Assembly (NCBI GenBank): GCA_905178155.1
Contig: CAJINV010000002.1
Location: 5,017,709-5,081,708, forward strand
Length of the DNA: 64,000 nucleotides
Direction: 5' to 3'
DNA from: Amoebophrya sp. A120
Lineage: Eukaryota > Protista > Dinoflagellata
The notes below the pieces were generated by a model. It saw only the letters and a list, made by a program, of their open reading frames with translations, made no database searches and was not told where the DNA came from. Shown in pieces: positions 1 to 64,000 of this stretch. Position 1 is the first letter of the stretch. Every line of letters starts with the position of its first letter. A program made the position numbers and the translations under genes.

Positions 1-2225
1 GACTTCACGGCCATAGACATGTCGTTGTGAAGCCCCTCATTCCCCCGGATGGAAAACTTCACGGTCTTTCCCTTGTCGGCAACCTCGATCGACATGCCCT
101 GCTCGCTCAGCATTTTTGCCCCGGACGCGGGGAAGAACTCCTTTTGTCCCTTCACAACCGGCTGGATCGACTCGAGGAGAAAGCCTTGCTTGTTGGCCAT
201 ATTCGGGTCGGTCTCGTCGGCCTCGAAATCAGGATCAATAACCCAGGACTATCAAATGTAAAAATGTCTGGGTCTGGAAGGTTGGAACTTGTGATGCTAA
301 CTTTGAACTCTAAAAAAATCTGTATTGCATGACCAGCAAGAGGAGTCTAGTTTGTGCTACGCGGGGAGGGAATTTCTCATGCGGAATAGGCATCAGGAAG
401 CCGTCTAAAAATCTGTGATGCTAGGTCGTGCATTACAGACATCCTGAGTCATGCAAAATATGCATGACAAACCCTGCAACATTCCAGACCCAGACATTTT
501 TACATTTGATAAGGACAGTTGATAGTCGATTCGCTCCATCCGGACCATTTCCTGTTGCCCAGCATGATGATGATGATCTCTTTCACCAGCTCGGGAAGAA
601 GCAACAGATGAGGAAACCGGTTTTTGCGACACCCGAATCCCGGTGAACTTTTTCGGCAAGAGATCCGAAACGCGCTCGCTATTCGGTGCGTACATCATGT
701 TGACAATCGGGAGAAGAAATTTGTTCTTCTGGTTCGATTTGACCTGTCCGTTGTCGAACATCTCCCAGCACATCCGCTCCAGCCGGCGATAGTCGAAATC
801 AACATTATTCTCGATTTTCCGTAACAAATCCAGCGATTGCTGCTCAGTCTTCGGAAAGAGCGTGAACTGCACCTGCAGTAATTCCTTCCCTTGTAACCCC
901 TGGAACTGGTTTTCCGCCAAATTCGCGACTGCCACGTCCGGAAACCCGGCGCCGCCACCGGCACCCGCGGCGTCCGCGCGGTCTTCGGGCACGTGGTTCG
1001 GGAAGAAAAGCGGGGCGAGCTCCGGCAGATCGAGGTAGGCCATCTGCTTCTCTTTGTTTTCTCGTTTGTGGGACTGCAAAACGGCGGAATTTGTGCTCTC
1101 CGGCTCGTCGCTTTTACTCCCAGCGGTAGAAGTAGAGGACAACTGGTGCAACTTCTTGTCAAACAGGTTGAAGTTCTGCAGCAACATCCGTTCCACCACA
1201 CTGTACTGCTGCCACCCTTTCCCCGCAAAGTCCATCGAGAAGTGGATCCAGGAGGGGTAGTACCGAGTTGCCGAATCACGAAGCACCATCGCGTTCTGGC
1301 GGACCACCGGCGACCCATTCGGCACTAGAGCGACTGCGCGGGGCAGTTTCGTGATCAGGAAGTTGTTCATCCAATCGTAGGTGTCCTTTCTGGTCGGATA
1401 GTCGTTCTCCCAATCAAATTTCAACAGTCGCCCGCTCTGTTGGTCGCGCTGCTCAGGGTTGCGGATGCTCAGCCAGTAGGAATTTTCCTGCTTGTAGTCC
1501 TCGCTGTCTCCCATATCGTCCTTGACCAAGTCCATCGCGCGGTAGTCGTGAACCAAAAACGGGTGCAGGAACTTGTCCTGCAGGGAGGAGTCGGCGAGTT
1601 GCGGGATGAGTGCGTCTTTATTCACCTGCTGGAACTCTTTGGACAACCAGGTTAAATCCGTGTTCCCGCCGTTTGATAAGAACTGCGACGCTTTGTCTTG
1701 TCGTTTTTGCGCTACGGTCTTCGGCCGGCGCTTCGGCGGGGGGCCCAGGGGGGCGGCACCGCGCTGAACAGGGTCGTCTACTAAAGCGCGGTCTGGCTGT
1801 AATTGAACTTGTCCTCCTGCGGCCGCTCGCTCGGCCGCCCGCTGCTCCGCGAGCATCTCCGCGTTGCTGCGCGCGCCCCGGAACAAAACCTGCGGTCGGA
1901 CCGCATCCGCGGGGGTGGGCGGGAAACTCGACGGCGCTCGGGTGCTGATGTCCGAGAGCCGAGACACCTGGATCGAGGGGGTTTGCAGATAAGACATGGC
2001 ACTAGAGCTGGACGCGGAACTGCGACCGTGGGTTGCCGCTGCCCTCGGTGGCGGGGTCTCCAACAAACCGCCACGCGAAGAGGATGCTCCTGTGCCCAGC
2101 GGCGCCGGCGTCGCGGGAACCGAGGGCGCTCTCCGTTCTAGGGGTTCCATACCCAGATTCAAGGAGGCTGCTGTTGGCTGTGCGGACAGCAACAGAGTCG
2201 CGGAAAACGCGGTGCACGTCTTCAT
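1..2225 (-). CDS. Hypothetical secreted protein; 3' end runs off the window; one introner intron (250-511)
   Basis: Long ORF with Met at 2225 followed by a signal-peptide-like stretch (MKTCTAFSATLLLSAQPTAA). Removing 250-511 plus one AGGAC copy continues the frame (DYQLS|WVIDPDFEADETDPNMANKQGF...) with no stop down to base 1. Confidence 0.75.
250..511. mobile_element. Introner, family F1 (TIR TATCAAATGTAAAAATGTCTGGGTCTGGAA)
   Basis: Perfect 30-bp TIR (250-279 / 482-511); TSD AGGAC at 245-249 and 512-516; interior nearly identical to 25054-25318. Confidence 0.95.
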
Positions 2226-2809
2226 TTTGATACGGTTCTTGGGACGAAAACAAATAAGTAGGTCTGTTTGGCGGGTGACTGTGGTTCGGGAAAGCGAGAG
2301 TCTCAATAAAATGATGCAAATGCAGATGCAGTGGAAGTCTTTAGCAGGTGGCAAGAAAAGGTAAAGATGCAGCTACCAAACTGAATTGATGCAAAGTTAA
2401 GTGCAACTTGACTTTTCAAATAAAATTGACGTACAAGTTGTGATGAATTTGACTACAAGTCGTAGAAGAGGTTTTGGGGTTGCTTCTGACTGAGGTTGAG
2501 GCACTGTTATGTTTCGAGCAGGAATGACGATGACCTTCAAAAGTCTTGTTTTGTTTGATAATGATCTCGCTTCGTTTGCTGGTTTTCACGAAGAGCAAAA
2601 TCTCGACAGATCGATTTGAATTTCGTCACGAGCAGATCGCGTTGAACAAAATTTGCTAAGATTCCTTTTTTCGAAAAGATTGGACCGACAGAGGAACTGC
2701 TTTTGTGAAGTAGATTTCCGGCACCGACACATAAATGGAAAAGCTTCACGTGATCCGTGATTTTATGGGGAGCGCATGTCTATACGTCAGAAAGCGCGTG
2801 ATGCATTCT

Positions 2810-4340
2810 GCAGCCCGAGTACGCACAGATCAAAACTCTCATACTTGAATCGCAGCGCAGCAGACACCCCGGCGGTGCTACCGCACGCGGATACGTAGCG
2901 GCACCGAAGGGCGAGGGCCAGCGTCGGCGCTGCCATGGCGCGATGGCGCCCCAAAGCCGAAAACACCCCGGGGGGCAGCCGCGCAGAAGCGCCGCACGCC
3001 GGCCGCCGAAGAGGAAGCGACCCCGCCCCCCTAGCTGCGAAATGCAGGAACCTGGCAGGCCCCCCCCCGGGCGCCGCGGGGGAGTGACGTAGGGGGTCCC
3101 TCGGATCTGCGCGCTCGCGTGTCACCTCCTAAGGGAAGCACCTAGGGAATGCATCGAATCCAGCAGCGGCGACACTGCAGCCGGAGGCCTTTTCGTTCCG
3201 ATAGAGATCGCCACGCTCGTGGTGGAAGTTAGTTGCGCCGGGCCTACTGTGTCGCGCCGGGGTGCAGCCTCGACTGCCCCGCCGGGGCGCGGGCGCGGAA
3301 CGGATCCAGGACGCAAATGCCGCGGCGCGACCGATAACGCTTAGCCGCCGCGCTGCGATCCGGCCGCCTTCCGCCGGCACATCAATCACCCGCCGGGCCA
3401 GGATCTCCGCCCCGCCCCCCACCGCCGGCATTGACGACGCTAACAGCGGCAGCAGCCCCCGCGACATGTGCGCCGGCCGCCCGGCGGTTCGCGCCCGTCC
3501 GTGCTCCGTGGCTTCTTCCACCACAATGCGCGCGACGCCTGCGGGGGCCGCGCCTTCGTTCGAGCCCAGCAGTCGCGCGCCCGCCTTCATCATTGTCCGT
3601 GCGGGTGACAGCGTGGAACCCCGGCAAACACCAGGCCCAAAGCTCCCGGCCAGCGGGCGCACAATATCCCGGCTGGTGCGATCGCAGCCCGCTGCGGGCC
3701 GACAGCGGTGCCCCCGCCCGCCGCAGGCGACGCCGGCCGCGCTGTGCTTCGTGAAAACGCCGGCCCCCGGCCGCCGCGGAGGCACCGCGCGGGCGGCGGA
3801 GTGCCCACACTGCGGGCGCACCGCGGCGCCGCGGACAAAACAGAGGCCGCCCGCTTCTGGGGGCGCCTTCTGCGTGCTCCCCTGCTTGACGCTTCCCCCT
3901 GGCCCGTGTCCCGGCTAGGCCCCTGCCGGCTCGGGCCGCGGCGCTTCTGCGCCGCCCCGGGCCAGCGGGGCGGCAGCCGCGATTTCCTTCGCAGAAGGCA
4001 AAAAATCCTGAGTCGCGCCTTCCACTTCCTGCCTCTCCGGCAAAGCATCCTGCTTCGTGCCATCCTGCTCCACAGAAGGCAAGTCACGACCCTGCGCCGC
4101 TGCCGGTGCTTGCGCGCACCCCCGGGCCCGGCCGGCGGCCCCAGGACAAGCGGCGAGCCGCCTCCAACCCCGGCGCCTCTGGGGCGGCCGCCGTGCGTCG
4201 GGGCTCGCGGAGCCCCGATCCGCACTCCCGAGGCGCCGCGGGCTTTCCCTGCTTTGCGTGAGCGCGCGGCAGCGGAGCGGGGGACTTCCCCGCCGTCGTT
4301 CGCGCTGCGAACTTTCCGACCGGACGCAGCATTCAAATTC
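2810..4340. other. GC-rich intergenic island, probably a decayed insertion or pseudogene
   Basis: Visibly much higher GC than flanks; overlapping Ala/Arg/Gly/Pro-rich ORFs in many frames with no recognisable motif. Confidence 0.5.
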
Positions 4341-4617
4341 GAAAAGCTAGGCTTCCTTGCTTCCATGAGCCCTACAGAACATCGAGCGGTGCGGGGCACC
4401 CAAAAAACAGCACGAACACGAACAAATAACACATCGAAGCGCTGCGAGAAACTCGCCCAGTTCACAAAAGGCCCAGCGGACTCTATAAAAAGGAAAAAAA
4501 TATGTCTTGAAAGCTGTAAACTGCACGGCAGCAATGCTTTTATTTGTTTGTTGATGATGGTCATGTCGAACCGTTTGGAAGTTGTTCTTTCCTCTCACAC
4601 GGCAGCAATGCTTGCTT

Positions 4618-8389: not shown

Positions 8390-10100
8390 ACAGAAAGGCC
8401 AGCTGACGCGGAAAATGCACACACGGAAACCGCGGCCAAAGGCCCGCTTCTGTTGAGCGTACTATCTTCAAGCGGAGATGGAGTGGCAGCAGCCCCGTGC
8501 GCCAAGCGCCGGCGCGAGTGTGCGGGCGCGGGGCCGCTACCGCTGTGGCAGGGAGCCGAAAAGCGACGCGCGCGCGCCTTAAAAGCGAGCGCGGGGCGCC
8601 GGCCGGCGGACTGCGACGGCGCTGGAGTGGCCCCGCAAGTACCGGGCAGGGCGACCGCCCTCGCCACGCGCGAAGCACTGCTGCACTGCTCCGGGCCGTG
8701 CCGGGCTGTGCCCCATGCTGCCACCTCTCTGTCCGGATTGGGGGCCTGGCCGCTTCAAACCTGTCGAAGCCCCCGCGGCCCTCTGTCCTACGTTTTCCCC
8801 GAGTGTGCGCGTCGGTTCCCCGAGTGTGCGCTTCTGTCCGGATTGGGGACTTGACCGCCCCAAACCTGTCGGAGCCCCCGTGGCCCACCGTCCGACGTTT
8901 CCCCCGACTGTGCGCGTCGGTTCCCCGAGTGCGCGCTTCTGCCCGGGTTCGTACAAGATCGCCGTCGTCGCGGCTGCTCCGTTTGCGGGCAGGCTTGCTG
9001 CAACGCACGCGGGGCGCTTCTTGGTGGAGTCGAGCCAGGGCCCGCAGGCGGCGCGCGCCGGCTTTTTTGGCGCCGCGCCAGCCGACGGGCGCCGCCAGAA
9101 AGGTCGGGCCTTTTCGGCCGTCCGGGCCGGTTTCCTTTTTGAGCCAAGTTCTCAGCTTCGTCGGCACGGCCTTCCCCCCCCCCCGACGGATCCCAACCGG
9201 GGCAAGCCCCTGCCGCTCGGCGTCCTACTGCGGCACATTCAGTGGCGGGGCCGTAATCCGAGGCGCACCCGCCAAGCGGGCGCGCCACCTTGCCACTGCC
9301 CCAAGCGCCCCACCTCGCCACTGTCCGAGCGAACTCCCCCGCGACCAGCCCCGCCCCCGGCGCTCCCCGCCCGGCTGCGCTGAATGCCTTCCAGCAGCGG
9401 GCGCCGTGGCGCGGCTTTCGGCCTTCTATGCTTTGGCACCTTCCGCGCCCCCTGTGCTGCGCGCAAATGCGACCCGCAAAGGCGCTCGCCTGTTCGAGTG
9501 CCGGACTGGGTCTTTTTCTGCGATAGCGCAAGGGCCTGCCAAAAACAGCGCGCCCGCGATCGCGTTATTAAATGCGGCCCGGGCCTTCCTCGCCAGGCGC
9601 AAAAAAATGCGCGGCCGCAAACTTCGGGAAGCGCGCGCGCCTGCTTTCTTTGCGTGCCAGGTATCTGCACTGGCGCGCCCCCAAGCACGCTGCCGCATGC
9701 GGGCGCCGTGGCTGCATCCGCTGCGCCCGGGCCGGCGAGCCAGCGCAATCCGCATAGCTGCCAAGAGCCAGCGTATGCATCCGCGGATCCGCGTGGCCGC
9801 TTAGCCACGTGCTTCCGGATTACGCTGGGCCTCGGGCGCATCGCTGGCCAATTGCAGTAAGCTGGCGACCGCGCCCCAGGTCTTTGGCCGGCACAACCGC
9901 TCTGCCCGCCTAATTTCCAAACCCACTGCGGCACCCGGGGGAACAGGCTTCCGCGCATTGCCCGAGTGCTGCCGGCGAGCAAGCTAGCCCACACTATGGA
10001 AAAGCGGTAGGGGCGCGGCCAATCTCAAAAAATCGAGCGCCGGCAAACTTTAGCAGCACGCACGTCCGCGCTCAGTAATTTTCGCCGGAATGAAGAACGC
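8390..10100. other. GC-rich intergenic island
   Basis: High GC, ARGP-rich ORFs in all frames; contains the 105-bp tandem duplication. Confidence 0.5.
8728..8946. repeat. Tandem duplication, 105-bp unit x2 plus start of a third
   Basis: TCTGTCCGGATTGGGG at 8728 and 8833, and TCTGCCCGGG at 8938; units align along their length. Confidence 0.85.
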
Positions 10101-10746: not shown

Positions 10747-13700
10747 CTACCGCGTCTTCTTCTCCTCAAAACCGGCGCTTCCAGACACTGAACTTTCCTC
10801 TTCCTCGTCTGCCCCGGTGTTCAGAACAACCCCAGCACCAGTCTTCGTTTGTTCCCCCCGCTTCTCGCAGACCATGAGCAAGACCTGAAACACGACCGCC
10901 GTGCTGAACATCAGCACCACCGCGTAGAAGCAGTGGGAGAAATCGCTGCCCGCGTGGCTGGTCAGTTTCGTCCCCACCACGACCAACAAATTCAACGGCA
11001 CCCGAAACACGTTGACCAGCCGCGACTGGTGTTCGTCGGGGTACAGCTCCGCGCGGATCGCGGCGCCGCACGCATTGTACATGCCGAGCGAGACTTCTAA
11101 CACCAGGAAAGAAATGAACACCGGCCAAAACTCGTAGCTGATCAGCGGGACGCACATGGAGAGCGCCGCGATGGCGTACACGAGGAGGGAAATTTTGCCG
11201 CTGCTGTTCAGCAGAGAGAACAAGAAGATAGTGGATGAGGAAGCGGCAGCACTCGCGTTCGCTCCCCTACTTTTCCTCTTCGCAGCAGCATTATCGACAT
11301 TCGTCCCGATCGCCGTGTATAAAATCCCCCCGAGCGTCATCGCCAGCATGAAGCACGCAAAGATTAAGCCCGTCGGAATTTTCTGCGAGTTCAAAACCAT
11401 CTGCATATTTGGCACCCACATGAACACGAAGGTGAAGACCCCGCCCTCGTAGAACGCCTGACTCAGGCCGAGGCAGAGGATGGTCGGCGTTTGCGCGATC
11501 AGCTCGCACGTGTCTTTCAAGTGTTGGAGCAGCGGCTTGTCTTCTGGTTTCGAAGCGTCGCTAGTTCTCGAACAAGATTTTGGCTTCTTAGTGTCCGCAG
11601 ATGTTGTTGAAAACTCCTCCAACTCGTACACCTCTCCTCCTGGTGTACCTTGACTCCGGGGACGAGGCTTGTACACCCATTCCTCCTCCCCGTCGCCCTG
11701 CTGCACCTCCAAGGCCGCGTTCTGACTGCTCCGCGCAGACGAGGTCCGGGTCAAGATATTGATCGCTGCTTCGCCCTCCGGGGTTCCATTCGGTCTGCCG
11801 CGACGACGGATGTTGGGGCCGGCAGTAGTGCCATGCAGTTCGTCGATAAAAGAGGAGGAACCTCCTGTAGTTGTACTCTTGTACACCGACGCAGGGGACG
11901 GGATATTTGGCGCCCGGGTTCCGTCGTGGCCGCCGGAAACGGTTTCTGTTGCGGTACTGAGGTACGAAACCGATTGCAGATCGTTGCTGACGTTCGCCGG
12001 GAAGGAGGAAGATCCTTGGTTAATCCCGTACGGCAGTACTCCTTGGGCGGCTGCTACAGCAGCGTGGTGCAGCTGCGCCGCAGCCCTTGTAGTTGTGTTT
12101 GTTCCCTGCAGGAAGTTCAGGTTCGTGCCTTGCGGGGGCTGTGGTCCTCCACCCTGAACTGCCATAGTTGTACCCGGACCACCTGCCAATCCGCGCGGCG
12201 TGTTTGCGTTACTCCCGAGCGGGCTGTTCGCATGATTCAACATCCCGTTGTTGTTGTTCGGTGGACTGGCAGCTCCACTACCGCCGCTCAGCACCGAGTG
12301 GTACGACGTGACCGAATTCTTCGACCCTCCCCTGCCGCCGCCCTGCCCGGAAAAGTGGCACTCGCGACGGCTCGCGCTGGTGTTGTAGAGGGAATTGGTT
12401 CCACCCCGTGCGGCCGACGATCGGTGTGCGGCAGTGGCCGTTCTGGCAGGATTATTCGCCGCAGCGACTGCGTGGGGATTGTTCGTTTCCCGCCGTGGTC
12501 CGCCGGCAGGTTGGAAGTTGTTTTGCACAACTCCTTCAAAATTCCCCGCGGCCGGGTCTTCCGGCCGTGCGCCGATCGGGGGGCGAGCAGGCGGAGCTGC
12601 AACCGCTGCCGGCGCCGCACGAAGATTTGTTCGTGGTCGTTGTTCAGCTGGAGCGTGATTCCCCTGATTTACTTGTCCTGCGTTCGCCTCGGACTGCGTG
12701 CTAGTTCTCCGTCTCGTCGCCCCGGACACCACCTGGGTGTTCCGGTGCCGGCTCGACGAACCTCCCGGGTGTTGAAAGCTCGGCGTTAGGCTCGTGCTCC
12801 TTCTTCGCGTCAGGTGTCTCTTGTGGTGCGCCGAGAGAAACGGGTTCTGCTTCGGGCTCGGGCACCCCCACGTGACGGACAGGGGCAGCGTTCGGGAGTT
12901 GCTGTTCGGTTCCTCGTCGCTCGTATCGGTCGTCGACGGATATGCATTGCAATTATATGTCTGCCGGGTCGGGACACAAACTGACTGCATTCATTACGCG
13001 GCCAGGCATAACAAGTTTTCGAGCGGTTCTGCAGTGAGCAAGGCGAATAAGTAGAAACAGAAGCTCGTTTGCAACACAGAAAAGCAGTGCTAATAGTTTC
13101 AAGCATGCATCATGTACAGAGTTCAGGAGTACGCTTGGAATTCAGCACTACAAGTCTTGCAACCTCCCAGACCCAGACATATTTGCATTCCATAACCGCT
13201 CGTCCTCGTCGATCTCGTTCGGTTTTTTCGTGGCAGAAGGGGGGTTCGGGAGTGTCGCGCCCGTGAGGTGATGCCCGGTCGCGGTCGTGGGGAGAGATAC
13301 AGACTTTGATGTTCTTTCCGCAGTTCTTGCATGAAGTTCCTCATCCGCGGATGAAACAACGCCGCCCAGCAGCGGCATCGTCTCTTCATAATTCCTCTCG
13401 CCTTCTGGCAAAGGAAGAGACATTTTTGGCGCTACCGGGATAGGAGCACCGCTTTCCTCGTTTTCGAGGTCGGGGTTGTGCTGACCCTGTAGGACCGACG
13501 CGCTCGCTATCGCCGCAGTACTATCAACCACCTGTGTTCCCTCGCGCTGTTCTACTTGTAAAGCAGATTCATTCCCTTGCTTATTCGCACTCTCCACAGC
13601 GGCAGGCACCCCGGAGGTGGTAAAACTACTAACCGTAGCTGCTCCACCTCCTCCTACAGAACTCTCCTTATCCTCTTCCCACAGAAAGAGGATCAACAGC

Positions 13701-14790
13701 AAACACACCACCGTCAGCGCGATTGCGAGCTGAAAGGGCCCGAGATCTCCCCGCTTGTCCGCCGCGATTTGCGCCAACAAGCCCCCGATGATCGCGACGA
13801 TTCCGTTCCCCGCGGACGCGATGGCGAAGGTCGCGTTCAAAGATTTTTCCGGGAACTTCCGTCTTCGATGCTCCGACACCATCCAGGCTTCGAACGCGGA
13901 AAAGAGGAGACTGGACGAGATCCCGGACAAAACGCGGCCGAAAAGTAGCAACGGGAAGTTGTTCACGTGTTCGATCAGGTTGATCACGATTTCGATCCAG
14001 CAGAAGAACAGACAGGCTTTTTTCCTCCCGTACAGATCCACGTACAGCCCCAGGTAGGTTCCTAACACGGCGGAAGACAGGAAGCCGGTGAGGAACAGGG
14101 TTCCCGTATCCACGCCATACTCGTCCTCGTACAGCGTGTACATATTCGTCCCTTGCAGCCAATCCGCGAGCATGATGGTCAAGTACACCGAGATATCCTG
14201 TGCAAAAGTATCGCACTCGTAGTAATTGCAGTCATGCATTACAAATTTTTTTCTGAAGCTAAATCCGCATTACAAATTTTTATTTCTAATGCTGAGCAAA
14301 TTTGTAATGCATTTATACGAGTACGATGCTTTTGCATTCCATACGAGAGGTACTTCAGCTGAAAGGTCCGGAAACTCGCCTTGTTCTTCTCCCGGCGGAG
14401 CTGCTTCTGCGTTTGCATGAAGTGAATTTGCTCCTCACGATCCGCGGTGCGGACGGCTTTATTCCCGTGGTCACTGTCGCAGCTCTGCTCACTGCTAGTA
14501 GTTTTTGAAGGAGAGTCGGATACTTTATTGTTCTTCTCGTGGTCGGGAAAAAATCCGGTTTTCGTGTTGTCATCGTCCTTAGTGATATCCCTGCCTCTGC
14601 TTGACCGCGACGCTTTCCGTTCTTCAGATGAGGTGGATGATTTGGAACCGGAGCTCGAGCTGTTGCTAGCTCTTCGTGCCGTGTACTTCGACAAGATTGC
14701 TACGAGGACGGTGAGAACGGCAATGGTCCGCAGCGCCCAGGGCGGCCACGGTTCCGCCGCGGCAAGACTTGCCGCGTCGGAGAGGTCCAT
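10747..14790 (-). CDS. MFSD5: MFS molybdate-anion transporter family (MFSD5/MOT2-like), 3 exons
   Basis: After splicing: FQLKYLS|VYLTIMLADWLQGTNMYTLY, DLYGRKKAC, GRVLSGISSSLLFSAFEAWMVSEH, FYEGGVFTFVFMWVP and NVFRVPLN, motifs typical of this family; introners at 14194-14343 and 12941-13194. Confidence 0.88.
12941..13194. mobile_element. Introner F1, older/diverged copy
   Basis: TATGCATTGCAA... / ...CCAGACCCAGACATATTTGCATTCCATA; diverged TSD ACGGA/ACCGC; removal gives DEDER|STTDTS in frame. Confidence 0.8.
14194..14343. mobile_element. Introner F5 (150 bp; TATCCTGTGCAAAAGTATCG)
   Basis: TIR of ~28 bp; TSD CGAGA; sister copy at 58570-58719. Confidence 0.93.
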
Positions 14791-31568: not shown

Positions 31569-31675
31569 AAGTAGAAAATTTTGAAAGTTGTCATGCAGCT
31601 GATGATACGAACGCAGATCTATTTTGCAGAGTCGCAAGTATTTGTACAGCGAGTGCGATGCTTTTGCGCATGATA
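31502..31675. mobile_element. Possible highly degenerate introner (F5-like right end)
   Basis: TATGCATCGCAAAAGC ... GATGCTTTTGCGCATGATA; no recognisable TSD, but removal plus 5 nt joins the frame of ORF 31565-31915. Confidence 0.4.
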
Positions 31676-51900: not shown

Positions 51901-52333
51901 TAAGCTTTCTTTTCTGCTGAAGTGTAGCGCGTGAAGCTGGTACAGGCTGCAGGCGCAAGACTATTTTCGTCAGCGCTGTTGATCAAAGAAAAGCATGCGA
52001 CCGCCCAGACAAACGGTCCATCTGGTGTTGGTGTTCTCTGATCATGGACCAAGCCTTGACGTTCCAGAAATTGGATCAAGTGCCCATCAGTGCGATCTTT
52101 GTAAATGGAATCCTATTCGTGCCTCCGTTCTTGACAGTAACTTGCTCGGTACCCACCCGGAGCCGCTTCAAAAACTTCTGCGTCCATACTCATTCGGCAG
52201 AGCCAGCAATCTGTTATTTCATTTCTCATCTTTCCTCGTTTTTACTTCTCTCCCGACTGCTCCTTCTACCTAGACTGTTAATACCAGCACTACACCGATA
52301 GTAAGTACGCTAGTTGTGCTTCTTCTCGCCAGA

Positions 52334-54251
52334 ATGATCGACATCGCGTTCAATATCACGGACGAGGCGTTTCACGGTCGCGGCAAGTACGACCCGGATC
52401 TGGATCTAGTTATCCAGCGGGCGGTCGAGGCGGATGTGGAAGCCTTCGTGATATGCGGGGGCAACAACGAGGACTGCAAGAAGTCGTTGGAAATTTGTGC
52501 CCAGTACGACCCGATTATTGGAACAACAAATGAAGCTGCAAATGGGTGTGCGCCGGACGAAAGCCCGAACGGCACAGAAATTTTACCTTCATCGAGGAGG
52601 AAAAATCTGAAACTGTTCCAAACTATCGGGATCCACCCGACCCGGTGCAGCGACTTCGACCCGGAGGTGCATTTGGCAGAGTTGCGGCAACTGATCGAGC
52701 AGAACCGGGAGCGCGTGGTCGCCTGGGGGGAGTTCGGCCTGGACTACGACCGGCTGCACTTTTGCGACAAGGAAAAGCAGCAATTTGGGTTTAGAATGCA
52801 GGTCAGATGCGCTTTGAGCATGACACCAGAGAAGTTTTTCCCGCCAGTAGCCTCTTCCCAGAACAAGGAGGCGGACCACGATCAGAAGACTATAATAAAC
52901 TCAGGCGAGGACCACGCGTATGCTGATGATCATTATCTCCCCATACCTTTTTACCTCCATTGCCGAGGGGAGGGTTGCTGGCCCGACCTTGTGGAGATTC
53001 TTGAAGAGGAGAAAAAAGTCTTCGCCAAGGAGAGAACCACGACGATCAATAAAGCGCTCGAAGATAGTACTAGTGGAGGCACATCAACAACATCATGCAC
53101 AGCACCAGACTCGATCTCACCTTCTCCATTGGTAACGCTCACCGGCGTGGTCCACTCGTTCACGGGGTCCCTCGCGGAAATGCGGGAGATTGTCGATTCC
53201 GGTTTCGTATGCATTGCAAATATGTCTGGGTCTGGAAAGATGCGAACTTGTGATGCGCACTTCACATCACACAAAAATCTGTCATGCATGGAAGCCAAAA
53301 GTTCCACCGTTCTGGCCACCGAAAGAAGGGCCTTGTCATGCGGATTACGCATTGAGAGACCTTCTCAAAACCTGTGATCCTAGGCCGTGCATGGTAGTTC
53401 TTCTGGGTGATGCCGAAGGTGCATCACAAACCGCTGCATCCTTCCTGACCCAGACATTTTTGCGTTTGATATTTCGAAATCGGCATCAACGGGTGCTCCC
53501 TGAAGACGGAAGATAATTTATTACAATGAAAAATAATGCCCCCACTCCCGAACTTGGGAGCATTTGTATTGCAAACCTATCCAAATGAAACATTCGCTCT
53601 CTTGCATCTATCAGCATCACAGGTTTCCAATCGTGAATAGCAAAAATTTGTATTGCAAAAGACCCCAGCAAGAGCGGCGCTTGTCATGCAAGCAATGCGA
53701 TACACCTACACGCCTAGACTGTGCATCAGAAAGATTCATATTCCTTTCATGCATGACAAAAATTTTTCATTTGGAAAGTTCGCATCACAAACTTCTGCAA
53801 TTTCATGGGTGGGGGGCACTTTTCACGGTAATAGAATTGCGCGGTTGTCAAGGAGATCCCCCTGCAGAAGCTACACCTGGAAACGGACTGCCCCTACTGC
53901 GACATCCGCCCGACACACTTTTCGCACCAGTTTTTGCAGAAGTTGATGAGTACTAGCAGCAAAAGTACGTCTAAATCTTCACAACCAGGAAGAACTGCAG
54001 GTCCTACGAACGAGCAAGAAATAGTTTTGGCAGGCGAGAAAGAAGATGAAAATTTGACGAAAGCGCGGCAAGTTTTGGAGTCTTTTCCAGTCTCGAAAAA
54101 GAAACTGGAACGCGGCATGATGCTCAAGTCCAGAAATGAGCCGTGCCGGATGATCGAAGTTGCCGAGGTCATCGCCGGGCTGAAGGGAATATCATCGCGA
54201 AATGTCGTAGAACAGTGCACAAAAAATTCAAAGCGACTCTTCAGAATTTGA
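52334..54251 (+). CDS. TATDN1: TatD-family DNase (TATDN1-like), 3 exons
   Basis: MIDIAFNITD, TIGIHPT, AWGEFGLDYDRLHFC, LHCR, GVVHSFTGS; after splicing GF|EIGINGCSLKTEDN|CAVVKEIPLQKLHLETDCPYCDIRPTH; later RNEPC. Confidence 0.95.
53208..53471. mobile_element. Introner F1
   Basis: TIR; TSD TTTCG. Confidence 0.93.
53519..53833. mobile_element. Introner F10
   Basis: TIR; TSD TAATT/GAATT. Confidence 0.93.
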
Positions 54252-54887: not shown

Positions 54888-57800
54888 ATGGCGTCCTCGA
54901 GCAGCGGCTCGTCCGCGATCCGCGTCCGGCGGGCGGTATCAGCTGCAAATATGTCTGGGTCTGGAAAGTTGGAGCTTGTTATGCTAACTTTGCACTCTGG
55001 AAAAATGTGTATTGCATGACCAGCAAGATGAGTCCAGTTTGTGCTACGCGGGGAGGCCATTTGTCATGCGGAATAGGCGTCAAGAAGTACTCAGAAAATA
55101 TGTGATGCTAGAGAATACATCACAGACGTCACGGGTCATGTAAAATCTGCATGACAAGTTGCAATCTTCCAGACCCAGACATATTTGCAATCCATAGGGA
55201 GACGCGGTCCACGACCAGGATGCGCTGCTCGCGTTACGGGAGGAGGTTGCCACGGGGAAGTCGCTGTCCACGACCACGTTGCAATCCTCGAAGGAGCTGT
55301 TGTACGTGCTGGACACCCAGTTTCTGTCGCTTGTCGTCCTCGAGGACGAAAAGATCGTCGCCTATGTGGCGTTGGAAGCCTGTCCGGGTGTGAACGCCTA
55401 CAAAGTCCGCGACATGGTGTCCGCGGACTTGTGGCTGTCCCGGGTAAAACCCTATCAAATGTAAAAATGTCTGGATCTGGAAGAATGCAACCTGTCATGG
55501 TAAATCTGAAGCATGCAAAAATCTGTGTTGCGTGATTACCAAAAGCCGTTCCGTTTTGAGCAAGTCGGGAGGGAGTTTCTCATGCAGGATGGGCATTAGA
55601 GAGATCGCGCAGAATCTGTCATGCTAGGTCCTGCATTCCAGACCTCATGGGTCATGGAAAAGCTGCATGACAAATCGCGCACTCTTCCAGACCCAGACAT
55701 GTTTGCATTTGATAAACCCACGGAAAAACATCAAAATTACTCCCTGGGAAACAGTTTGTGGCTCAATGACCACATCAACCTAACAACCGAGTACGTGAAG
55801 CAAGTCTGCACCTTCGTCTTTTCACAACCAAGGATGTGCGTCGAATACTTGTTTGCGGTATAATAGATAGAACTGACGAGTGAGAAACATGCATTTACAA
55901 GAAGTATTAAGTGCAGCTTCATCCTTTATTTTCTTTGTAGAAGAAAAATAAGTGAAAATGCACCGCATCAGAAATAACAATAAGAATCCTGTTTAGCCGA
56001 CGTTATTTTCGATGGTGTTTTTTCATGCATGTGAAAAAATCGCTAAAAATTCATTTTTCAATGATCGATCATACAAAAACAAGAAGCTTGGACGATCACA
56101 CAATTGCTAGGTGGAGCGCAAGTCCCAAGCCGCGCACCTTTTTTCCGAGGACGGGAACTATTTCACTCCGGTGCCGTATGGATGTGTCAGGATCGAAATT
56201 GACAAAGTTGAAACGATTTGCCATGCATAAAATGCAGCCCACAAAGTGCCTGTCATGCAGAGTAGGCAAGTGAGGCAGACTGTAAGCGTGTTGAGGGGTA
56301 GAAACTGAGCTGCTAAAGCAGCATGACAGAAAGCGTCTTCCTTACCCAAACAGCATGACAAACTGGATTTCGGTTCTACTCAGATTTGTCATGCGCCACT
56401 TGGAAACTGGGTTACAACGCAATTGGCATCCGTTTTATGCATGGCAAATCATTATTTCAACTTTGTCGATTTCGATCCTGACGCTCCCATATGCCGAGCG
56501 CCGACCAGGTGGCCACGTGGGTGAACCGGGCGTATAGGTCTGCGGACTGCGTGAAGGTACTGACCACGGAGAAGAAAAAGTATATCCAGCCACTAAAAAT
56601 CCGCATGGCGAAGGGAGAAGACCACGATAGTCTGGTCGTAGGCATCGCAAAGATGTCTGGGTGGTCTAGAAACCTGTGATGCTGCGTGCTGGCGATGATT
56701 GAGGATGAGCACTCCTGAGTGAATGCGAGCAGGAAGAATTTTTGGGACGGCGCTCCGTCATTCTCAGTGTGCATGTAGAAACTGCGTTTCATTTGTATGT
56801 CAAAAGAGCTCGCGTCATCTGCGTTGGTCATACGGGATGAATGTAAGCCAAGCCACATTTATTTTCCAGACCCAAAGATATTTGCCTTTGATACACCGCG
56901 GTCTTTAACCAACAATCGGAGGTGGTAACCGAGGTATACGGCGATTTCTTTTATCAAATGTAAAAATGTCTGGGTCTGGAAGAATGCAACTTGTGATGCT
57001 GCGTCTGCATTATCTAAAAATCTGTATTGCATGAACAGCAAAAGAGGTCTGGTTTTGGCCACGGCGAGAGGGCATTTCTCATCAGGAGTCGGCGAGAGAG
57101 CAGGCATCAGGAGTCATGAAAAATGTGCATGACAAACCTTGCATCCTTCCAGACACGGACACTTTTACACTTGATATCTTTTTGGCCGAGCTGATGGAGG
57201 CCCAGAACGAGGAGAACAAAGCCATCGTCGTATCAAAAGGAAAAATCTCCCCTCCCCATATCAAAACGAAATTTCTGATGCTGGATTTGAGTACACAAAT
57301 CAGCTTTCTATTGCAGGAAAGCATCGCAGTCAGGTCCCCAGGCTAGGTAGGGGCGTACGCGTCTAGTTGTTCAGCATGGCAAGCGGCTCCCCTTTAGGCC
57401 CAACAGCATGACAAATCGCTTCCATAATGGGGCGGAATCTTCTGCCCTTGCCTTCTTGCAAAATAAATGTGATGTGTGGCCTCAAATCAGCAACAGAAAT
57501 TTTCGGAAACACGCCTTTTCAATGTGGGGAGGAGGGATTTTTCCTCTCAATACGTCGCCGAGTCCGACGAAACCGGGCGGGCGGTGGGGCTGTGCTGCCT
57601 CACCTGCGACTATGCAATGTAAATTTCCTGTACATGTACAAAATGCATGACAAATTTCGCTACCTTGCATAGTCCAACTTGTCATGCTGGACTACGATTG
57701 AAGGCAAGTTTTGTCATGCAGAGACGGCATTTGTACGTGTACGGGAAATTTACTGTGGATAGCGACGTGGACGCCAACGTACTGGCGCAGTGCTTTGAGT

Positions 57801-60800
57801 TGTTATGGAATGCAAATATCATGTCTGGGTCTAGAAACTTGTAATGCTGATTTGTTAATAGTGAATTCTCTGCAATGCAAAGCCAAGCATGAGAAGTATT
57901 TGATTTGCGCTGCCTAGTGCTGCGGTTTCCGCATGACAAACTGCGTTTCGCATGACAAGAAAAAGGGTCTCTTCTCAGACACGCATGACAAACTCTTCAG
58001 TCATGCCAGACAAGCATGACAGACCTTGCGTCCTTTCAGACCCAGACATATAATTTGCAACGCATAGTTGTTGCCCTACGACAATTTGTTGAAGAGGAAA
58101 TACTGGTCCAAGGTAAAAGCGCAAATGGAAAAGGAACGGGCAGCGGCCGGGGAGGACGAAAGTTTCTGTCGAGGTAATTATGAATGTGTCGGCGAAGTTC
58201 TTCTGTGATATGCGCTATTTTAGTACTGGCGGTAGAAGTTCTTGTGCAGTTTGTTATCTTTATTTCTCCTCATGCTCAGCAAGAAGTTGAAGTTGAAGTG
58301 CGTATGCGTACGCTTTGACGTTACAACTCGTCAGCGGCAGTAAGTCATACGAAGATCTTACCGACATTCATTATCAGGTGACTACCTCCAGGCGGCCCTG
58401 CAGGGTATGGAGCTGGAGATGTTTGTGAGTAACTTAATTCTGCTTCAAACCGAAGACCACGAAGAACCCGAGGGCGTAACCGCGATGCAGTTGCTGAACG
58501 CGTTGCGCACGCAAGAGTACGGAGACAAGTACACGCGAGCCGACATCGACATCGCCGAGTCGATCATGATATCCTGTGCAAAAGTATCGTGCTCGTACTA
58601 ATCGCATTCATGCAATGCAAATTTCTTTCTCAAGTTAAATCCGCACTACAAATTTTCTTTCTCATGCTGACGAGAGTTGTCATGCGATTTATACTAGTAC
58701 GATACTTTTGCAATTCATACACGATCGGAATTTGGCACCAGATGTGGTGGACTCCGCGCATCGAATATGACCTGCTCAAACGTTGCAATCTCAAACGTTG
58801 CAATAGAGTCTGGGATTTGTCTTGCATGATGAGCATGACAGACTCGCAGAGCGTTCCACTTTCTGCAATACAAATTATGCCAGATTATAGCGCGGTTTGG
58901 AGCTCCGAAACTTGTCATGCGCAATCCTGTGGCAAGAGGCTAGATCATACACTTCTTGCATCACAGATTTCCATACTCTATTGCAACGTTTGAGATTGTA
59001 ACATCTGAGCAGGTTATATCGAAGCGAACACGTTTCTGCGGTTTGAGGAGCTACACCGACTGGCCAGAAGAATGAAGAAATACGGTAAAAAGAGAACAAA
59101 CTCAGGGTCGTCTTTTGTACCAAGACTGCGATTTTTCCTTGAAGTAGATGTCGTGCATTATAAATTTAGTACCAAGTAGACGCGTGGTTGCTCCTCGTCC
59201 TCGGGACTAAAAGCCAAGTTGTTGATTCCCCGTGGCGCTTGCTCATTCTTGCACCACAAAAATAAAAGGCAACAATCGTGAATCAACAATTTTGCCAAAA
59301 TTCTCACCATTAACAGACATCGGCGCCCGGCGGGCCATAGCTCAGAACATCCTCGACAAGTGGGATAAAATGTACGAGACCTTCTGGGTCGTAAAAGAAG
59401 CCGCGGACCAGTCGGAATCCGAAAAGCGTATCCTGAGTAAAAAGCAACCTACAACCTCCAGTCGTGAGTCCTCGTCATGCAAGTTTGCACAATACAAGCA
59501 GAGTACAACGACCCAGCTTAACAAGCTGAGCTGCAGTTCCCCACGACAGTCTTTTTGCGACTGCGTTTGGAAAGTCGTCTTAGAAATATATTTGTCCTGC
59601 TTGAAGTTTTTCAACTAGGAAAAAAAAGCCGAGTTTTGCGACTGTTACACCAGCTGAGCACGACCACACTACGTGTTGTCGAGGGGATTTGTCATGCGGA
59701 GTTTCTAAAACCACCTCTGGAATGATCAAAATCTCGACTAGAGGGTTCGGAGGTCGTTGTTGTGTTTAGACAGGATAAAGCGAGACTTGGAGTCCATCGA
59801 CAAGAAGAAGCGGGCAAAGGTATCCTGAGTAAAAACGTACCCACACCAGAGTTGTAATGCAGATTTGCAAAGACAGGAAGACTTGTAATGTGCATCCCCA
59901 TGAGTGCCATTTCCAATCGTGTTTTGGAATTTGTGATGCTGTGAACAGGATGAGCAGATGAATCTGTGACGCGGCTGAACTTGCTAACCTGCACTACACT
60001 GCATAGTGCAACTTGTCATGCGTGACTCACAAAACTCCTAGGTTTGTGTTGCAAAATCCCCATCTGGACTCTGGTGTGGGTACGTTTTTACTCAGGATAA
60101 AAGGAGGGCGACGGCGACGTGAGCCCGATATGCATCGCAAGAGAAACTGTTTTTTCCATACTGTCAGAGGACGCACTTCTTGCATGAGTGATAACTTTCT
60201 GCCAGCGCAATTTGATGAAAAAGTGACGGCGCAGCTGCAACAGGACAATTATCGGGTAGTACCACGCTGCGAACAAAGTTCTTTTCCTGCAAGAACAAAA
60301 AGCATGTTATGTACTCAGTTGCCCGTAGCTACAGTATTATCGTTGTGCCTAGGCGATGCTTATTTTGTACGGGATATCCGATGCAGGGGAGTAACGACTT
60401 GGACAGCTACGACATCAATGTACCAAGGGCAGAACGAGGAATTGTGCCGAGGGTAAGCATTTAAATCTGAGTGGTGTCATTTTTGCATGGCAACTACTTA
60501 GTTCTGTGAAAAATTTCAGCACCATGTTGACGCGAAAGCATATGTAATACGGAAGTACAGCCAGCAAAAAAAAGACATGTTCACGACAGGTAACGTTTGG
60601 TAAATTACTCTACCACCTGACTACTTCGCTCGAGGACGCGCAGAAGGACCAGCGACGGGCTTCGATCATGAAAAAGGGGAGTAAAGACAGCAAGAAAAAG
60701 AACCAAGACTACCAGGAGCTCCTGGACCCAAAAAATATCGAGAACATGGACGAGAAAACACCACCGCTGCTGACGCGCGAAGAGGCAACAGACTTGCTCT

Positions 60801-63800
60801 TCGTGGTTCACTGGTGGTCCACGGAAAACGAGGGGATCAACTGCATCTCGGCGATCGACCAGGTGGACTCGGAGAGCCTGAAGAACTGTCTGGAAGCCAT
60901 CGTGAAAAAGGAGGACGACATTTTCATCAACCACCACCAGAGCTCGAGCTGGTACAGACAGAGACCGGAACAATTCCTTTGTTTTTCTCATCCATGCACA
61001 AGTACTAACTACAACTAGGTACAGACACAGAGCTCCAGCAACCCGCTGCTGTAGCACGAAAGATAAATAAATTTTGCAACTGCAACCAGTTGCCTCGTTG
61101 TATCTACTATTTGTACTTAAATTTATCGCACCACATCATCATCAGAATCTGAAGTATTACTCAAACATTACCTACGTAATATCACGACGATCCAGGTTGT
61201 TCGGCGTTCCAGATGTGATGAAGGACTTCTTCTGTGTGAACCTGTTCTGTGTAGACGAAGCCATCGCGCATCGAAGCGCGGACTTCCTTACGGCCTGCTC
61301 AGGTGGAACTACAGACTCTGGTGGAACAAAAAATTGTGATGCAAAACGCGCGTTGTCATGTCTGTCTAGCTATCATCGAGTGTAGTATCACAAACCTCTG
61401 ACATTCCTCTCCATGTGGAAATCCGCCCCGAAAAATTGTCATGCTGAGCGGGAGAACGAGAAAGCAGAGGATGTTGAGGATGACTATTTTACGCTTTATG
61501 CAACACATTCTTCCAGTTCAGCTTCAGATTATAGTTCCAGCTGAGCGGGGCATATTCCTCCTGCCGGCCTTTGCACTGTTTCCAGACAAGGACTACTGCG
61601 TAATCACACAGCCGCACACGAGCAAGGTAAAACTGAAGTTTTTTTGTTCGTGATCTTCGGTACACAGTGAAAGCTTTTGCATCGTGATTATCTCATGCGA
61701 AAAGAGGTATTTTGTGACAGGCAATGAAGGAGATGATGAAGGGTAACTAAGGGAAAAAAATTTCTACAACGAAAATAAAAAACTGCAGATCACCCCCTTT
61801 CTCCAAGCCTTTAGCATGGTGCCCCCGAAACCATCCAACACCTTCGGCCACGTGTTGTTCGTGTTGCACCGAGCCTGCTGCACAGCGAGCTTAACGCCAA
61901 CGGTCAGGATGCTGGAGGGAGAAGCGGATCTGGACCGGGTGGCGGCGTATCAAACAGGAACTTGGTTTTTACTCGCAACGACATTGGATCGCGGTGCGGG
62001 CTTTATTGCACATAGAAAAACAAGAACAACGATAAGCACATCTTTCGTTGGCAGCAAGCAGCCCATGGAGTTGCAACCGGCTATAAGTGGTCTTTGTGCT
62101 GGGTCGATGTTCTGTCTGCCTTTTTTGCAACACCACAAATTGAATTCTTGTCATTGCTGGCTACTATTTTCTATTTGATACGACGGTTCTGGACGGCATG
62201 GATTTAAAAGATGGGGAGTTTATTGCGAACACGGTAGAAGCGGCTTTACTAGACGACGACGCGCAAACCTTCGTCGTCGAATTTGACAATCAAGTCATCG
62301 GGTAAGTACAAGCGTAAATTTGTTTTTACTTGGTGTCGCAATTATAGGAGTTTGAAACAAGTTGTGCCGGCGGCAATAGAGGTCGCCGTCGGAAGAATCG
62401 CTGTCCGTATGTGGAACAAGGGGCTGCTAAAACAAATTTTGTGTGAGGACAAATAGTGAAAAGTATTCATCAACATCAGGACGAAACAAAGAACACAGTG
62501 ACTTGTTTTCATCTGAGGTGGAAATGCAAATGAATCACAGATGTTGAATTCAATTTATCCGTCTGCAACTACAGCGTCGTCGGGAGCTCCTTGGTGAAAG
62601 ACGACTATTTAGAGACGCTCCGCTGCGTGTACCAAGTAGACCGGGCGGTCAATTCGCCAGAGTACAATTCCTTTGCGTTTGTGGACTTTTTCCTCGTGAA
62701 CCCCATCTTTGACATTTTCCGACGGAAGATCCTCCACCTCTGCCAGCTGATCGCCGGCAACACGGTCTTTTTGTACGAGGCGCCTATCCAGTGCAAATAT
62801 CTGTGTCTGGGTCTGGAAGAAGTGCAGAAGCAAGAGGACAAAGCTTGCTCTAGTTCATGCAACACGTAATTTTCATCGTGTCAACCACCCTGAGCATCAC
62901 AAGTTGCACTGTTCCAGGCCCAGACATCACATTGGCAATGCATAGCGCAGCTCACCACGCAAATCACAGACGACCCGATCGAGGACCATGCGGGCTCCGT
63001 GCACTCCGGCAGCCCACTATGAAAGTGCACAGCGCGCTCTTTTTTCTCATTTGTCATGCAAAATGTCTAAACTTCGTCTTCGACTTCCCATCCGGGCCGT
63101 TTGGCCGTGTTTGCATGACAAGTTCATCTGGCAGCCCAAACTGGACTACAGTCCCGGCTTAGATTTGTCATGCATGAGCTGTTTTTTGGAGGTTGTTTGT
63201 CTTGCAGTTGCTAGACTGCACCGTTCGAAAAATGAGACTGGAGGGGGACTAGTTGTGCACGGTCATATTCCCACACCGAGGGCAAAGGCAGTCCCTTCGA
63301 GGAGGGATCTCTATCCCGGCAGATGTCCAGCGCGGCGCCCTTATGTCAGTGTACAACCACTCCCCGGAGGACTCCTCTCACTTGTATAAAGAACATTCGG
63401 GGAAAAAATAAATGCCGAGTCCAGTCTGAGGTCCAGATAAGTAGGTGGACGGGCTTGCATGTCATGCGGAAGCTGCAGTTTGTATGTCGATAGAAAAATT
63501 GTCCTTCGAACGAAAGGGATTTAGGGGGGATTGATTGTCCATTCTCATATCCCTTTGCCCCGGAGTTGCCGACCGGCATGTCAAAAAAGGAGTTGATTGC
63601 GTTGAAGAAAAAGCAGGAGGTATCCAGGAAAAAAACTGTGTAAGTGTAACTGTGTAGGAAAAGCAGCATCACAAATTACCTTTGCATTACAGGGAAAGTC
63701 TGTCATGCGCAGCTAGTACGTGGAAACACGTATGAAAGTAGCGTATGACGCAGATCCAGCATGACAAGTATAACAGTTTTGCACCTTCCGCATCACAGAT

Positions 63801-64000
63801 TTACACTCACATACTTTTTTTCTTGCATAGGAGGCGGAAGCGGCCGAGGCGGCAAAGGCCGCGAAGAAGGAACTGGATTCCCTGGAGCGAAAGGGCTACA
63901 AGCAACTGGTCGACAAAGACGGCAACCTGCTCCCGCTGTCAACCATAGTCAAGGAAATGACGCCCATTCCACCCAGAAATTCTCCCAGCCTAATGGTCAC
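54888..64000 (+). CDS. CFAP61: Cilia- and flagella-associated protein 61 (5' part; continues off window); 19 introners plus several canonical introns
   Basis: Reassembled exons give IRMAKGEDHDSLV|AVFNQQSEVVTEVYGDFF|LAELMEAQNEENKAIV, NVLAQCFEL|LPYDNL, FCVNLFCVDEAIAHRSADFL|LPAFALFPDKDYCVITQPH and FVVEFDNQVIG, matching conserved CFAP61 N-terminal motifs as I recall them. Confidence 0.85.
54937..55196. mobile_element. Introner F1
   Basis: TIR; TSD GGCGG/GGGAG; also excisable as an in-frame GT-AG intron (54936-55197). Confidence 0.92.
55453..55714. mobile_element. Introner F1
   Basis: TIR; TSD AACCC; interior is the reverse complement of 29080-29340. Confidence 0.94.
56177..56491. mobile_element. 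Introner F2
   Basis: TIR; TSD TGCCG. Confidence 0.94.
56639..56893. mobile_element. Introner F1, diverged
   Basis: TAGGCATCGCAAAGATGTCTGGG / CCAGACCCAAAGATATTTGCCTTTGATA; TSD GGTCG/CACCG; removal in frame. Confidence 0.8.
56952..57176. mobile_element. Introner F1
   Basis: TIR; TSD TCTTT. Confidence 0.93.
57231..57552. mobile_element. Introner F9
   Basis: TIR; TSD CGTCG. Confidence 0.93.
57611..57761. mobile_element. Introner (TATxxAxxGTAAATTTCC TIR, 151 bp)
   Basis: ~33-bp TIR; TSD GCGAC. Confidence 0.9.
57804..58066. mobile_element. Introner F1-like
   Basis: TIR; TSD GTTGT. Confidence 0.9.
58570..58719. mobile_element. Introner F5
   Basis: TIR; TSD CATGA/CACGA; 150 bp, same length as 14194-14343. 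Confidence 0.92.
58766..59018. mobile_element. Introner F3
   Basis: TIR; TSD TCGAA. Confidence 0.94.
59429..59777. mobile_element. Introner F4-like (349 bp)
   Basis: TATCCTGAGTAAAAAGC / GTTTAGACAGGATA; TSD AAGCG. Confidence 0.85.
59821..60099. mobile_element. Introner F4
   Basis: Perfect 32-bp TIR; TSD AAAGG. Confidence 0.95.
60129..60376. mobile_element. Degenerate introner
   Basis: TAT...ATA ends; TSD CCCGA/TCCGA; weak TIR; joins DVSP|MQGSND. Confidence 0.65.
61289..61554. mobile_element. Introner (F3-related TIR)
   Basis: TACGGCCTGCTCAGGTGGAACTA / TAGTTCCAGCTGAGCGGGGCATA; TSD TTCCT. Confidence 0.88.
61948..62180. mobile_element. Introner, diverged
   Basis: TATCAAACAGGAA / TTTCTATTTGATA; TSD CGGCG/CGACG; removal in frame. 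Confidence 0.75.
62785..62944. mobile_element. Introner F1-like, short
   Basis: TGTCTGGGTCTGGAA / TTCCAGGCCCAGACA core; TSD GCGCC/GCGCA. Confidence 0.85.
63018..63267. mobile_element. Introner F6
   Basis: TATGAAAGTGCACA / TGTGCACGGTCATA; TSD eroded (CCCAC/TTCCC); removal plus 5 nt is in frame. Confidence 0.82.
63342..63549. mobile_element. Introner F6-like, diverged
   Basis: TAT...ATA ends with weak TIR; TSD GCCCT/TCCCT; joins SAAP|FAPELP. Confidence 0.75.
63621..63829. mobile_element. Introner F8
   Basis: TIR; TSD GGAGG; joins KKQE|AEAAEA. Confidence 0.92.

Follow-up and report, generated by a model that had tools for sequence, protein, structure and literature searches.

How can genes that are interrupted over and over by mobile elements still give continuous messages, and what tells the cell where each interruption begins and ends? 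A 64,000-nucleotide (nt) stretch of the genome of the marine parasite Amoebophrya sp. A120 (contig CAJINV010000002.1; hereafter, the window) raises this question, since it holds 44 introner elements of 150-349 bp with TA...TA ends, spread over positions 250-63829, and transcript-like contigs nevertheless lack those at the junctions that could be read. We found that the elements are cut out one base before the terminal TAT and four bases after the terminal ATA, in a single register (N|TAT...ATA-NNNN|). What the analysis adds is this single cut rule, obtained from 11 informative copies, and the observation that neither splice dinucleotides nor the target-site duplication (TSD) directs the cut. 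Removal likely acts at the RNA level, and we favor, with a probability of roughly 0.55, the reading in which a modified (major) spliceosome removes the elements.

The elements were collected through a scan for inverted ends with 5-bp repeats, a search for the end motif, and RNA evidence. Locally shuffled versions of the window gave only 0 to 2 TA-ended matches with a perfect 5-bp repeat (three shuffles) and 0 to 5 weak matches (five shuffles). An earlier note on this DNA had counted 44 clear and two weak elements from at least 10 families of terminal inverted repeats (TIRs) in nine genes; we recovered 44 and not the two more, found 23 clusters of interior similarity among them, in keeping with the many families, and counted eight interrupted gene units by eye. 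Thirty-six elements lie in plus-strand genes and eight in minus-strand genes. Their ends read TAT-S-N6-AAA on both sides, with T, A, and T in 44, 44, and 42-43 of the 44, respectively, as the terminal bases of each end, and with A in 31-40 of the 44 along a run at element positions 11-13. Within the elements, which total 10,961 nt, we counted 99 copies of an internal motif, TGT[CG]ATGC on one strand or the other, in contrast to six copies in the remaining 53,039 nt; the motif often sits about 42 nt from either end and is oriented inward. The 5-bp flanks match at all five positions in 29 elements, at four in nine, at three in three, at two in two, and at none in one. Deleting an element plus 5 nt joins long open reading frames (ORFs), as the earlier note had proposed, and deleting 4 or 6 additional nt fails to do so; if the intron is retained, an in-frame stop results in 43/43 tested cases, the element at 61289 having been left out owing to a failed frame call. 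Among the gene names that had been suggested, Pfam confirms TatD and MFS_5, whereas CFAP61 found no confirmation, with no PDB matches and only fragments or spurious matches in other searches. An Rfam search gave no matches.

The element class is real and was already known in this strain. Three window exons are 100% identical to annotated Amoebophrya sp. A120 proteins, and thus the elements correspond to the introners that Farhat et al. (2021, PMC7789003) described. The text of that paper describes an inverted repeat motif of TAT + 7 nt + AAA, direct repeats of 3-5 nt with one 5-bp example, inverted repeats located 1-5 nt from splice sites with a border that is variable or unknown, and RNA-supported non-canonical intron ends; it puts non-canonical introns at more than 60% of all A120 introns and leaves the removal route open. 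Its Table S4 shows T at +2 in 18 of 18 “predominant” splice motifs, a count that aligner placement may bias. A 2025 survey (PMC12130899), in 19 of its 58 A120 rows, reports families whose TSDs are called at lengths of 2-5 and whose splice calls are mixed. Whereas the text of Farhat et al. has direct repeats that vary in length and position, we find a constant 5 bp and a single register; the dispensability of TSD identity, the asymmetry of the U at +2, the unbiased orientation, and the common subterminal motif also go beyond that text, although more about the register may be contained in its figures (Fig. 3, S19-S25). We found no statement of a fixed cut register for A120 in the literature searched, a search in which most subscription journals, including the final version of Roy 2023, were outside the scope.

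Evidence for removal comes from four runs of one sample (X3-X6), whose contigs we guessed to be RNA, given that they skip GT-AG introns and leave 50004-52004 uncovered. In each run, a single contig with a depth of 51-90 spans 58340-64000. Fifteen of 16 joints are listed over this region, and they comprise five GT-AG introns (59085-59316, 60453-60589, 60952-61195, 61627-61788, and 62302-62574) and ten element skips, all of the element plus 5 nt: 258 nt for 58766-59018, 354 nt for 59429-59777, 284 nt for 59821-60099, 253 nt for 60129-60376 (a degenerate element found through the RNA), 271 nt for 61289-61554, 238 nt for 61948-62180, 165 nt for 62785-62944, 255 nt for 63018-63267, 213 nt for 63342-63549, and 214 nt for 63621-63829. 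An eleventh skip, of 155 nt at 58570-58719, follows from the piece coordinates. The contig of X3 additionally omits 215 nt at 46684-46893 and, in the TatD gene, a combined 589 nt that matches the expectation for 53208-53471 and 53519-53833 together. Thus, the element and 5 nt are absent at 14 of 14 readable junctions, all of them on the plus strand.

These skips could, in principle, be reverse-transcriptase template switches at a hairpin plus direct repeats, in genes that are not properly spliced. All the RNA used here is cDNA-derived, and the combination of a hairpin and a direct repeat is reportedly a signature of such artifacts. Nevertheless, the depth is zero inside four elements in all four runs, skips are exact with only 1 nt of homology (63018) or with an unpaired end (60129), retention would bring the stops mentioned above, the domains are conserved, and an ortholog is continuous across the junctions, all of which makes this explanation very improbable. 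As a separate observation, a lone TIR-like end at 39464-39490 has no partner, and the annotated protein P0004 continues through it, which hints that a single TIR end is insufficient for removal.

The position of the cut can be read where the two copies of the duplication differ, a check that the earlier note had recommended and that proved workable. If k is the count of upstream TSD bases retained in the exon, the RNA gives k = 4-5 at 46684 (TSD 4/5) and 63018 (2/5), k = 3-5 at 58570 and 61948 (both 4/5), k = 0-4 at 62785 (4/5, with the mismatch at position 5), and k = 1-5 at 53519, 60129, and 63342 (all 4/5). The annotated A120 proteins, which were built from transcript alignments, add three copies: at 31502-31675 (plus strand, TSD 0/5), the protein is compatible with k = 4 only, for an intron at 31501-31679; at 34785-35069 (plus strand, TSD 3/5), with k = 3-4; and at 12941-13194 in the minus-strand MFS_5 gene (TSD 3/5), with k = 3-5, where the ortholog P0002 carries the same residues, retaining DERSTTDTSD. 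Four other mismatched plus-strand copies lie outside this set: no protein record was recovered for the gene that the earlier note calls CFAP61, which holds 54937-55196 (TSD 3/5) and the degenerate 56639-56893 (2/5), 25054-25318 (4/5) falls outside the annotated protein, and the mismatch at 27117-27294 (4/5) is synonymous and thus uninformative. The sole value common to the 11 informative copies is k = 4, which defines the intron as N-TAT...ATA-NNNN; with independent random registers, the chance that all 11 would share one is at most 0.004.

It is highly improbable, therefore, that the direct repeats guide a cut placed anywhere inside them, with a register that varies from copy to copy. Such a variable cut would agree with the text of Farhat et al. 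(2021, PMC7789003), which describes where splicing occurs as variable or unknown, and the eight RNA cases taken alone would share a register by chance with a probability of 0.08. However, 11 of 11 informative copies fit k = 4, and removal is exact in the RNA despite a TSD of 2/5 (63018) and in the annotated protein despite one of 0/5 (31502). In these two copies, a better duplication lies one base further out at each end and predicts introns of 257 and 181 nt, and those removed measure 255 and 179 nt. Thus, the matching duplication is not the guide, and the role that the earlier note had given to TSD geometry finds no support.

The register also bears on the other route that had been suggested, namely DNA excision similar to that of internal eliminated sequences (IESs), which would provide transcribing cells with element-free genes. 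Ciliate IESs are TA-bounded DNA segments that are excised leaving one TA, and the TA ends of our elements resemble them; moreover, contigs lose rare alleles, and the joints of the DNA-like run X1 are only those listed. Nevertheless, X1 contigs cross nine elements unbroken, with a flat depth of 44-46 and no differences (the window itself may derive from X1), both TA ends are lost along with 5 nt instead of one TA being left, and the register tracks the direction of the transcript (12941), as does the asymmetry at +2 described below. We therefore consider DNA excision highly unlikely.

To look beyond the window, metagenome contigs were scanned with the TIR pattern (14 of 64 parts), yielding 163 loci (L001-L163; 416 kb) with the same element families; 36 of the 44 elements in the window have a best metagenome match of 69-96% identity. 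A TSD-blind detector, which finds 34 of the 44 elements in the window and makes no false call there, identified 322 unique copies in these loci, with exact repeats of 5 bp in 255, of 4 bp in two, and of 6-9 bp in none. The strand was assigned with a codon model, which was right for all 42 window elements that it called and gave an orientation for 277 of the 322 copies. In viral contigs, the commonest TIR had no matches, and the generic pattern had 13, none with a TIR. Raw RNA runs X9 and X10, which bear the same species label, gave 66 and nine records on element fragments and left these genes uncovered; they carry the TIR families of 55489-55539, 56177-56208, and 56952 with different flanks, and probably represent another strain with its own insertions.

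With the register fixed, one can ask whether the elements or their targets supply splice sites. At k = 4, the 44 window elements show GT-AG in two cases, GT only in 16, AG only in two, and neither in 24, and the 14 RNA-shown skips comprise two with GT-AG (59821 and 63621), four with GT only, and eight with neither; for instance, the intron ends are GT..GC at 59429, AT..GA at 58766, and TT..CC at 61289. The tallies in the earlier note agree in their totals (GT in 18 and AG in 13 of 43) but mix two cut registers. Both RNA-shown GT-AG cases sit at k = 4, and in 11 of the 14 skips, GT-AG, GC-AG, or AT-AC ends are impossible in every register; an AT-AC option at 58570 (k = 1) was discarded owing to the TSD mismatch there. 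Thus, the GT/GC donor and AG acceptor of U2-type introns are not present beyond chance level, and with 12 of 14 junctions lacking GT-AG at k = 4, the claim that Amoebophrya-type introners are precisely removed without these dinucleotides is borne out. A TAG just past the element end is bypassed in the RNA at 53519, 62785 (TAG at +1), and 63621, where a GAG at +4 is chosen over the TAG at +1, and in annotated proteins at 27971-28249 and 40103-40352 (both with TAG at +1) and at 37528-37735, where a full GT...TAG option (element+2) is unused; these three elements are on the plus strand with a TSD of 5/5.

The position of the cut within codons is uneven, with phase 0 in 134 of 276 loci copies and 22 of 44 window elements at the k = 4 cut, in contrast to an even distribution at control sites (470/482/457). 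As no splice dinucleotide is recruited, the usual account of a phase-0 excess does not apply. A model with a palindromic target explains the excess only in part (0.38 vs 0.47). A depletion of C at +1 (40 vs 56, z -2.6) did not withstand correction for 84 tests.

Other possible guides are the element's own sequence and structure. Orientation relative to the transcript is unbiased in 14 of 14 families with at least four members (62:46, 21:25, 11:17, 16:10, and 8:10 in the five largest), and an internal signal on one strand is therefore not the guide. The ends are predicted to be paired in 11 of the 14 RNA-shown introns; at 58570 and 61289, the predicted pairing is weak, and at 60129 there is none, and the element at 60129-60376 is removed despite a TIR identity of 11/20 and unpaired ends in the prediction. 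Pairing between the TIRs thus helps but is not strictly needed, which upholds only part of the guidance by TIR pairing that had been proposed. The guide that remains is a ruler that starts at the TAT/ATA ends.

Which machine reads this ruler? Several observations lead us to favor the spliceosome. First, of the six registers, only k = 4 brings a U to position +2 and an A to +3, and these bases also occupy the two positions in five of five canonical introns in this gene, all of which begin with GTA in the same transcript contigs. Second, U is present at +2 in 44 of 44 window elements at k = 4, as in U2-type introns. Third, TA ends were not required in a profile search, which thus recovered copies with mutated ends; in 367 oriented copies (one probable boundary error having been omitted), mutations of the terminal T number zero at the 5′ end versus six at the 3′ end (p=0.03), and positions 1-2 pooled are mutated two versus ten times (p=0.039). 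Such a small asymmetry would be expected from a spliceosome that reads this U, but not from a cutter that treats the hairpin symmetrically. Farhat et al. (2021, PMC7789003) found 83 of 89 spliceosomal proteins in A120, along with U2, U4, U5, and U6 but not U1, and the tunicate spliceosome is known to adapt to non-GT-AG ends (PMC11282704, PMC13326754). The class 12 introners of Polarella, compared below, further combine the k = 4 geometry in a 5-nt TSD with genuine splice sites.

Under the spliceosomal reading, the inverted ends in the pre-mRNA, either paired or read as motifs, would unite both junctions and could substitute for U1 and for AG scanning. The first U and A of the element would stand where an ordinary GUA donor has its +2 and +3, and the acceptor would be set by counting four bases beyond the element end. 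Because it lies inside the 5-bp duplication, the cut gives back the original coding sequence for any target and in either orientation, and such scar-free restoration would account for the spread of the elements through the genome.

Several observations weigh against the spliceosomal reading or the register on which it depends. G at +1 is found in 90 of 277 loci copies versus 85.8 expected (74 vs 69 when matched for phase), with no sign of selection, and GT-AG at k = 4 occurs in eight of the 277, which is the chance level; an enrichment of donor G in the window (18/43 vs 6/43 in the mirror position, p=0.007) is absent in the 277 copies. In the three RNA and three annotated cases described above, the TAG lies three bases upstream of the acceptor and is ignored, unlike in normal AG scanning. 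No asymmetry between 5′ and 3′ ends that resembles a branch point was found, with one of 70 end positions beyond |z| 2.5 and no pattern. The asymmetry at +2 amounts to six events in loci without RNA, position 3 is mutated six times at 5′ ends versus three times at 3′ ends, and position 2 is mutated twice at 5′ ends. With regard to the register, the 0.08 obtained for the RNA cases alone is weak, the contigs are guessed to be RNA and come from one sample, and the annotated proteins may derive from the same RNA. Finally, no transposase was found with Pfam among 55 window ORFs, nor in the ORF at 21057-21869.

Many of these facts would be expected if the same fixed-ruler removal from RNA were carried out by a separate protein nuclease and ligase reading the base of the hairpin, similar to the proposal for euglenids and diplonemids. 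The complete indifference to G+1 and AG, the ignored TAG, the occurrence in both orientations, the predicted pairing of the ends in most RNA-shown copies, and the lack of a detectable branch-point signal all suit such enzymes, and U1 was not detected in A120 according to the text of Farhat et al. (2021, PMC7789003); in addition, the Euglena code is likewise built from a pairing motif and spacers of fixed length, N3CDG...CHG N5-6|R (PMC12501133). In contrast, the U at +2 is conserved specifically at the 5′ end, the register fits a GUA donor, which would happen by chance one time in six, and 60129 is removed exactly although its ends are not predicted to pair. We regard the nuclease-ligase pair as possible but doubtful, and the broader proposal of a dedicated RNA cut-and-join system that is independent of the spliceosome and measures one and four bases from the TAT...ATA hairpin as somewhat unlikely.

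With regard to their mobilization, the elements are non-autonomous, hairpin-ended copies of DNA transposons, similar to MITEs (miniature inverted-repeat transposable elements), as they carry TIRs and a TSD of constant length. The constant TSD, common termini, and common subterminal motif suggest that one kind of cut-and-paste transposase serves all families; it would insert the elements by means of the TAT ends, the A-run at positions 11-13, and the motif TGTSATGC. TSDs of 4-5 bp are typical of the hAT5, Transib, and Ginger superfamilies. The longest intact element observed, at 105-1208 of locus L021 (1104 bp), has further long counterparts at L055:3862-4492 (631 bp) and L054:571-1051 (481 bp), all with intact TIRs and an exact 5-bp TSD; the internal sequences of the L021 and L055 members look unrelated, and neither shows, by eye, an evident transposase frame. 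The text of Farhat et al. (2021, PMC7789003) likewise reports that no transposase was found in A120, and Gozashti et al. (2025, PMC12130899) list an A120 TIR family with integrase-like ORFs.

The remaining window elements all have a TSD of 5/5. On the minus strand, they are located at 250-511, in a gene without a Pfam match, at 14194-14343 in the MFS_5 gene, and at 15803-16108, 16204-16424, 17048-17299, 17468-17733, and 18895-19150 in an amino-acid permease gene. On the plus strand, they are found at 28685-28990, 29080-29340, 36012-36247, 36290-36500, 37816-38136, 43358-43695, 44240-44474, 55453-55714, 56177-56491, 56952-57176, 57231-57552, 57611-57761, and 57804-58066. Among the RNA-shown elements, the TSD is also 5/5 at 53208, 58766, 59429, 59821, 61289, and 63621. 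Removing six elements from 23850-31916 leaves one ORF of around 2,200 codons, of which the annotated P0003 covers only the last 1,395 residues, and thus the public model looks truncated.

The window contains other features of interest. An intergenic block at 20700-23310 consists of interlocking inverted repeats (21150-21210/22476-22536, 100%; 22193-22317/22553-22677, 98%) with a minus-strand ORF of 271 amino acids and no Pfam match, which is reminiscent of a non-autonomous DIRS-like element. The segment at 21158-22528 was considered as an introner and rejected, as its flanks are reverse complements that form part of a longer inverted repeat. At 48486-48850, a small two-exon gene with an intron that is GT-AG by eye may encode the spliceosomal Sm protein G. 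The GC-rich blocks at 2800-4400, 8400-10100, and 49400-52000, with ORFs that have no Pfam match and with 50004-52004 uncovered in X3, are probably other repeats.

The cut rule has practical consequences. It fixes the true intron ends, so that tens of thousands of junctions can be annotated anew, and it indicates where lariats or circles should lie and which bases to mutate, making the removal mechanism testable. It also accounts for the invasion of coding sequences without any choice of target. If the spliceosome acts on these introns, G+1 and the terminal AG are wholly dispensed with; if it does not, there is a new RNA-processing machine in alveolates. Were a dedicated cut-and-join system to operate, any insertion, in any target and orientation, would become a scar-free intron, and Euglena-type splicing would have a second, independent origin in alveolates.

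Several known systems resemble the one described here, each in some respects only. Classical introners (Gozashti 2022) obtain canonical sites from the element or the TSD and show biases in orientation or target, whereas the A120 elements do neither. MITEs and other non-autonomous TIR transposons share with them the TIRs, the constant TSD, the repeated subterminal motif, and the existence of many families, but the cognate transposase of the A120 elements was not found among the 55 window ORFs searched with Pfam. The nonconventional introns of euglenids (Nomura et al. 2025, PMC12501133) also have a MITE-like origin and a terminal motif that pairs and keeps a set distance to each junction, and they are reported to be excised as full-length circles; their motif is CAG/CTG with spacers of 3 and 5-6 and a purine at the start of the next exon, in contrast to TAT/ATA with spacers of 1 and 4 in A120, where the first base of the next exon is A in 81, C in 50, G in 90, and T in 56 of the 277 loci copies and thus does not follow the purine rule. 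The introns of Fritillaria are also derived from transposons and lack GT-AG, in this case with an adapted U2 spliceosome (PMC11282704, PMC13326754), but they keep the preferred ends AG-AC and AG-AT as well as U1, whereas the A120 elements keep only U+2/A+3. Finally, the class 12 introners of Polarella glacialis, as described in the preprint by Roy et al. (bioRxiv 10.1101/2020.10.14.339549), have a 5-nt TSD as well, and in one of their forms, the donor is made of the last TSD base and the first element base, and the acceptor of TSD positions 3-4, which is the geometry of k = 4. In Polarella, the TSD must be NNAGG and supplies real splice sites, whereas the A120 elements share the geometry and accept any target.

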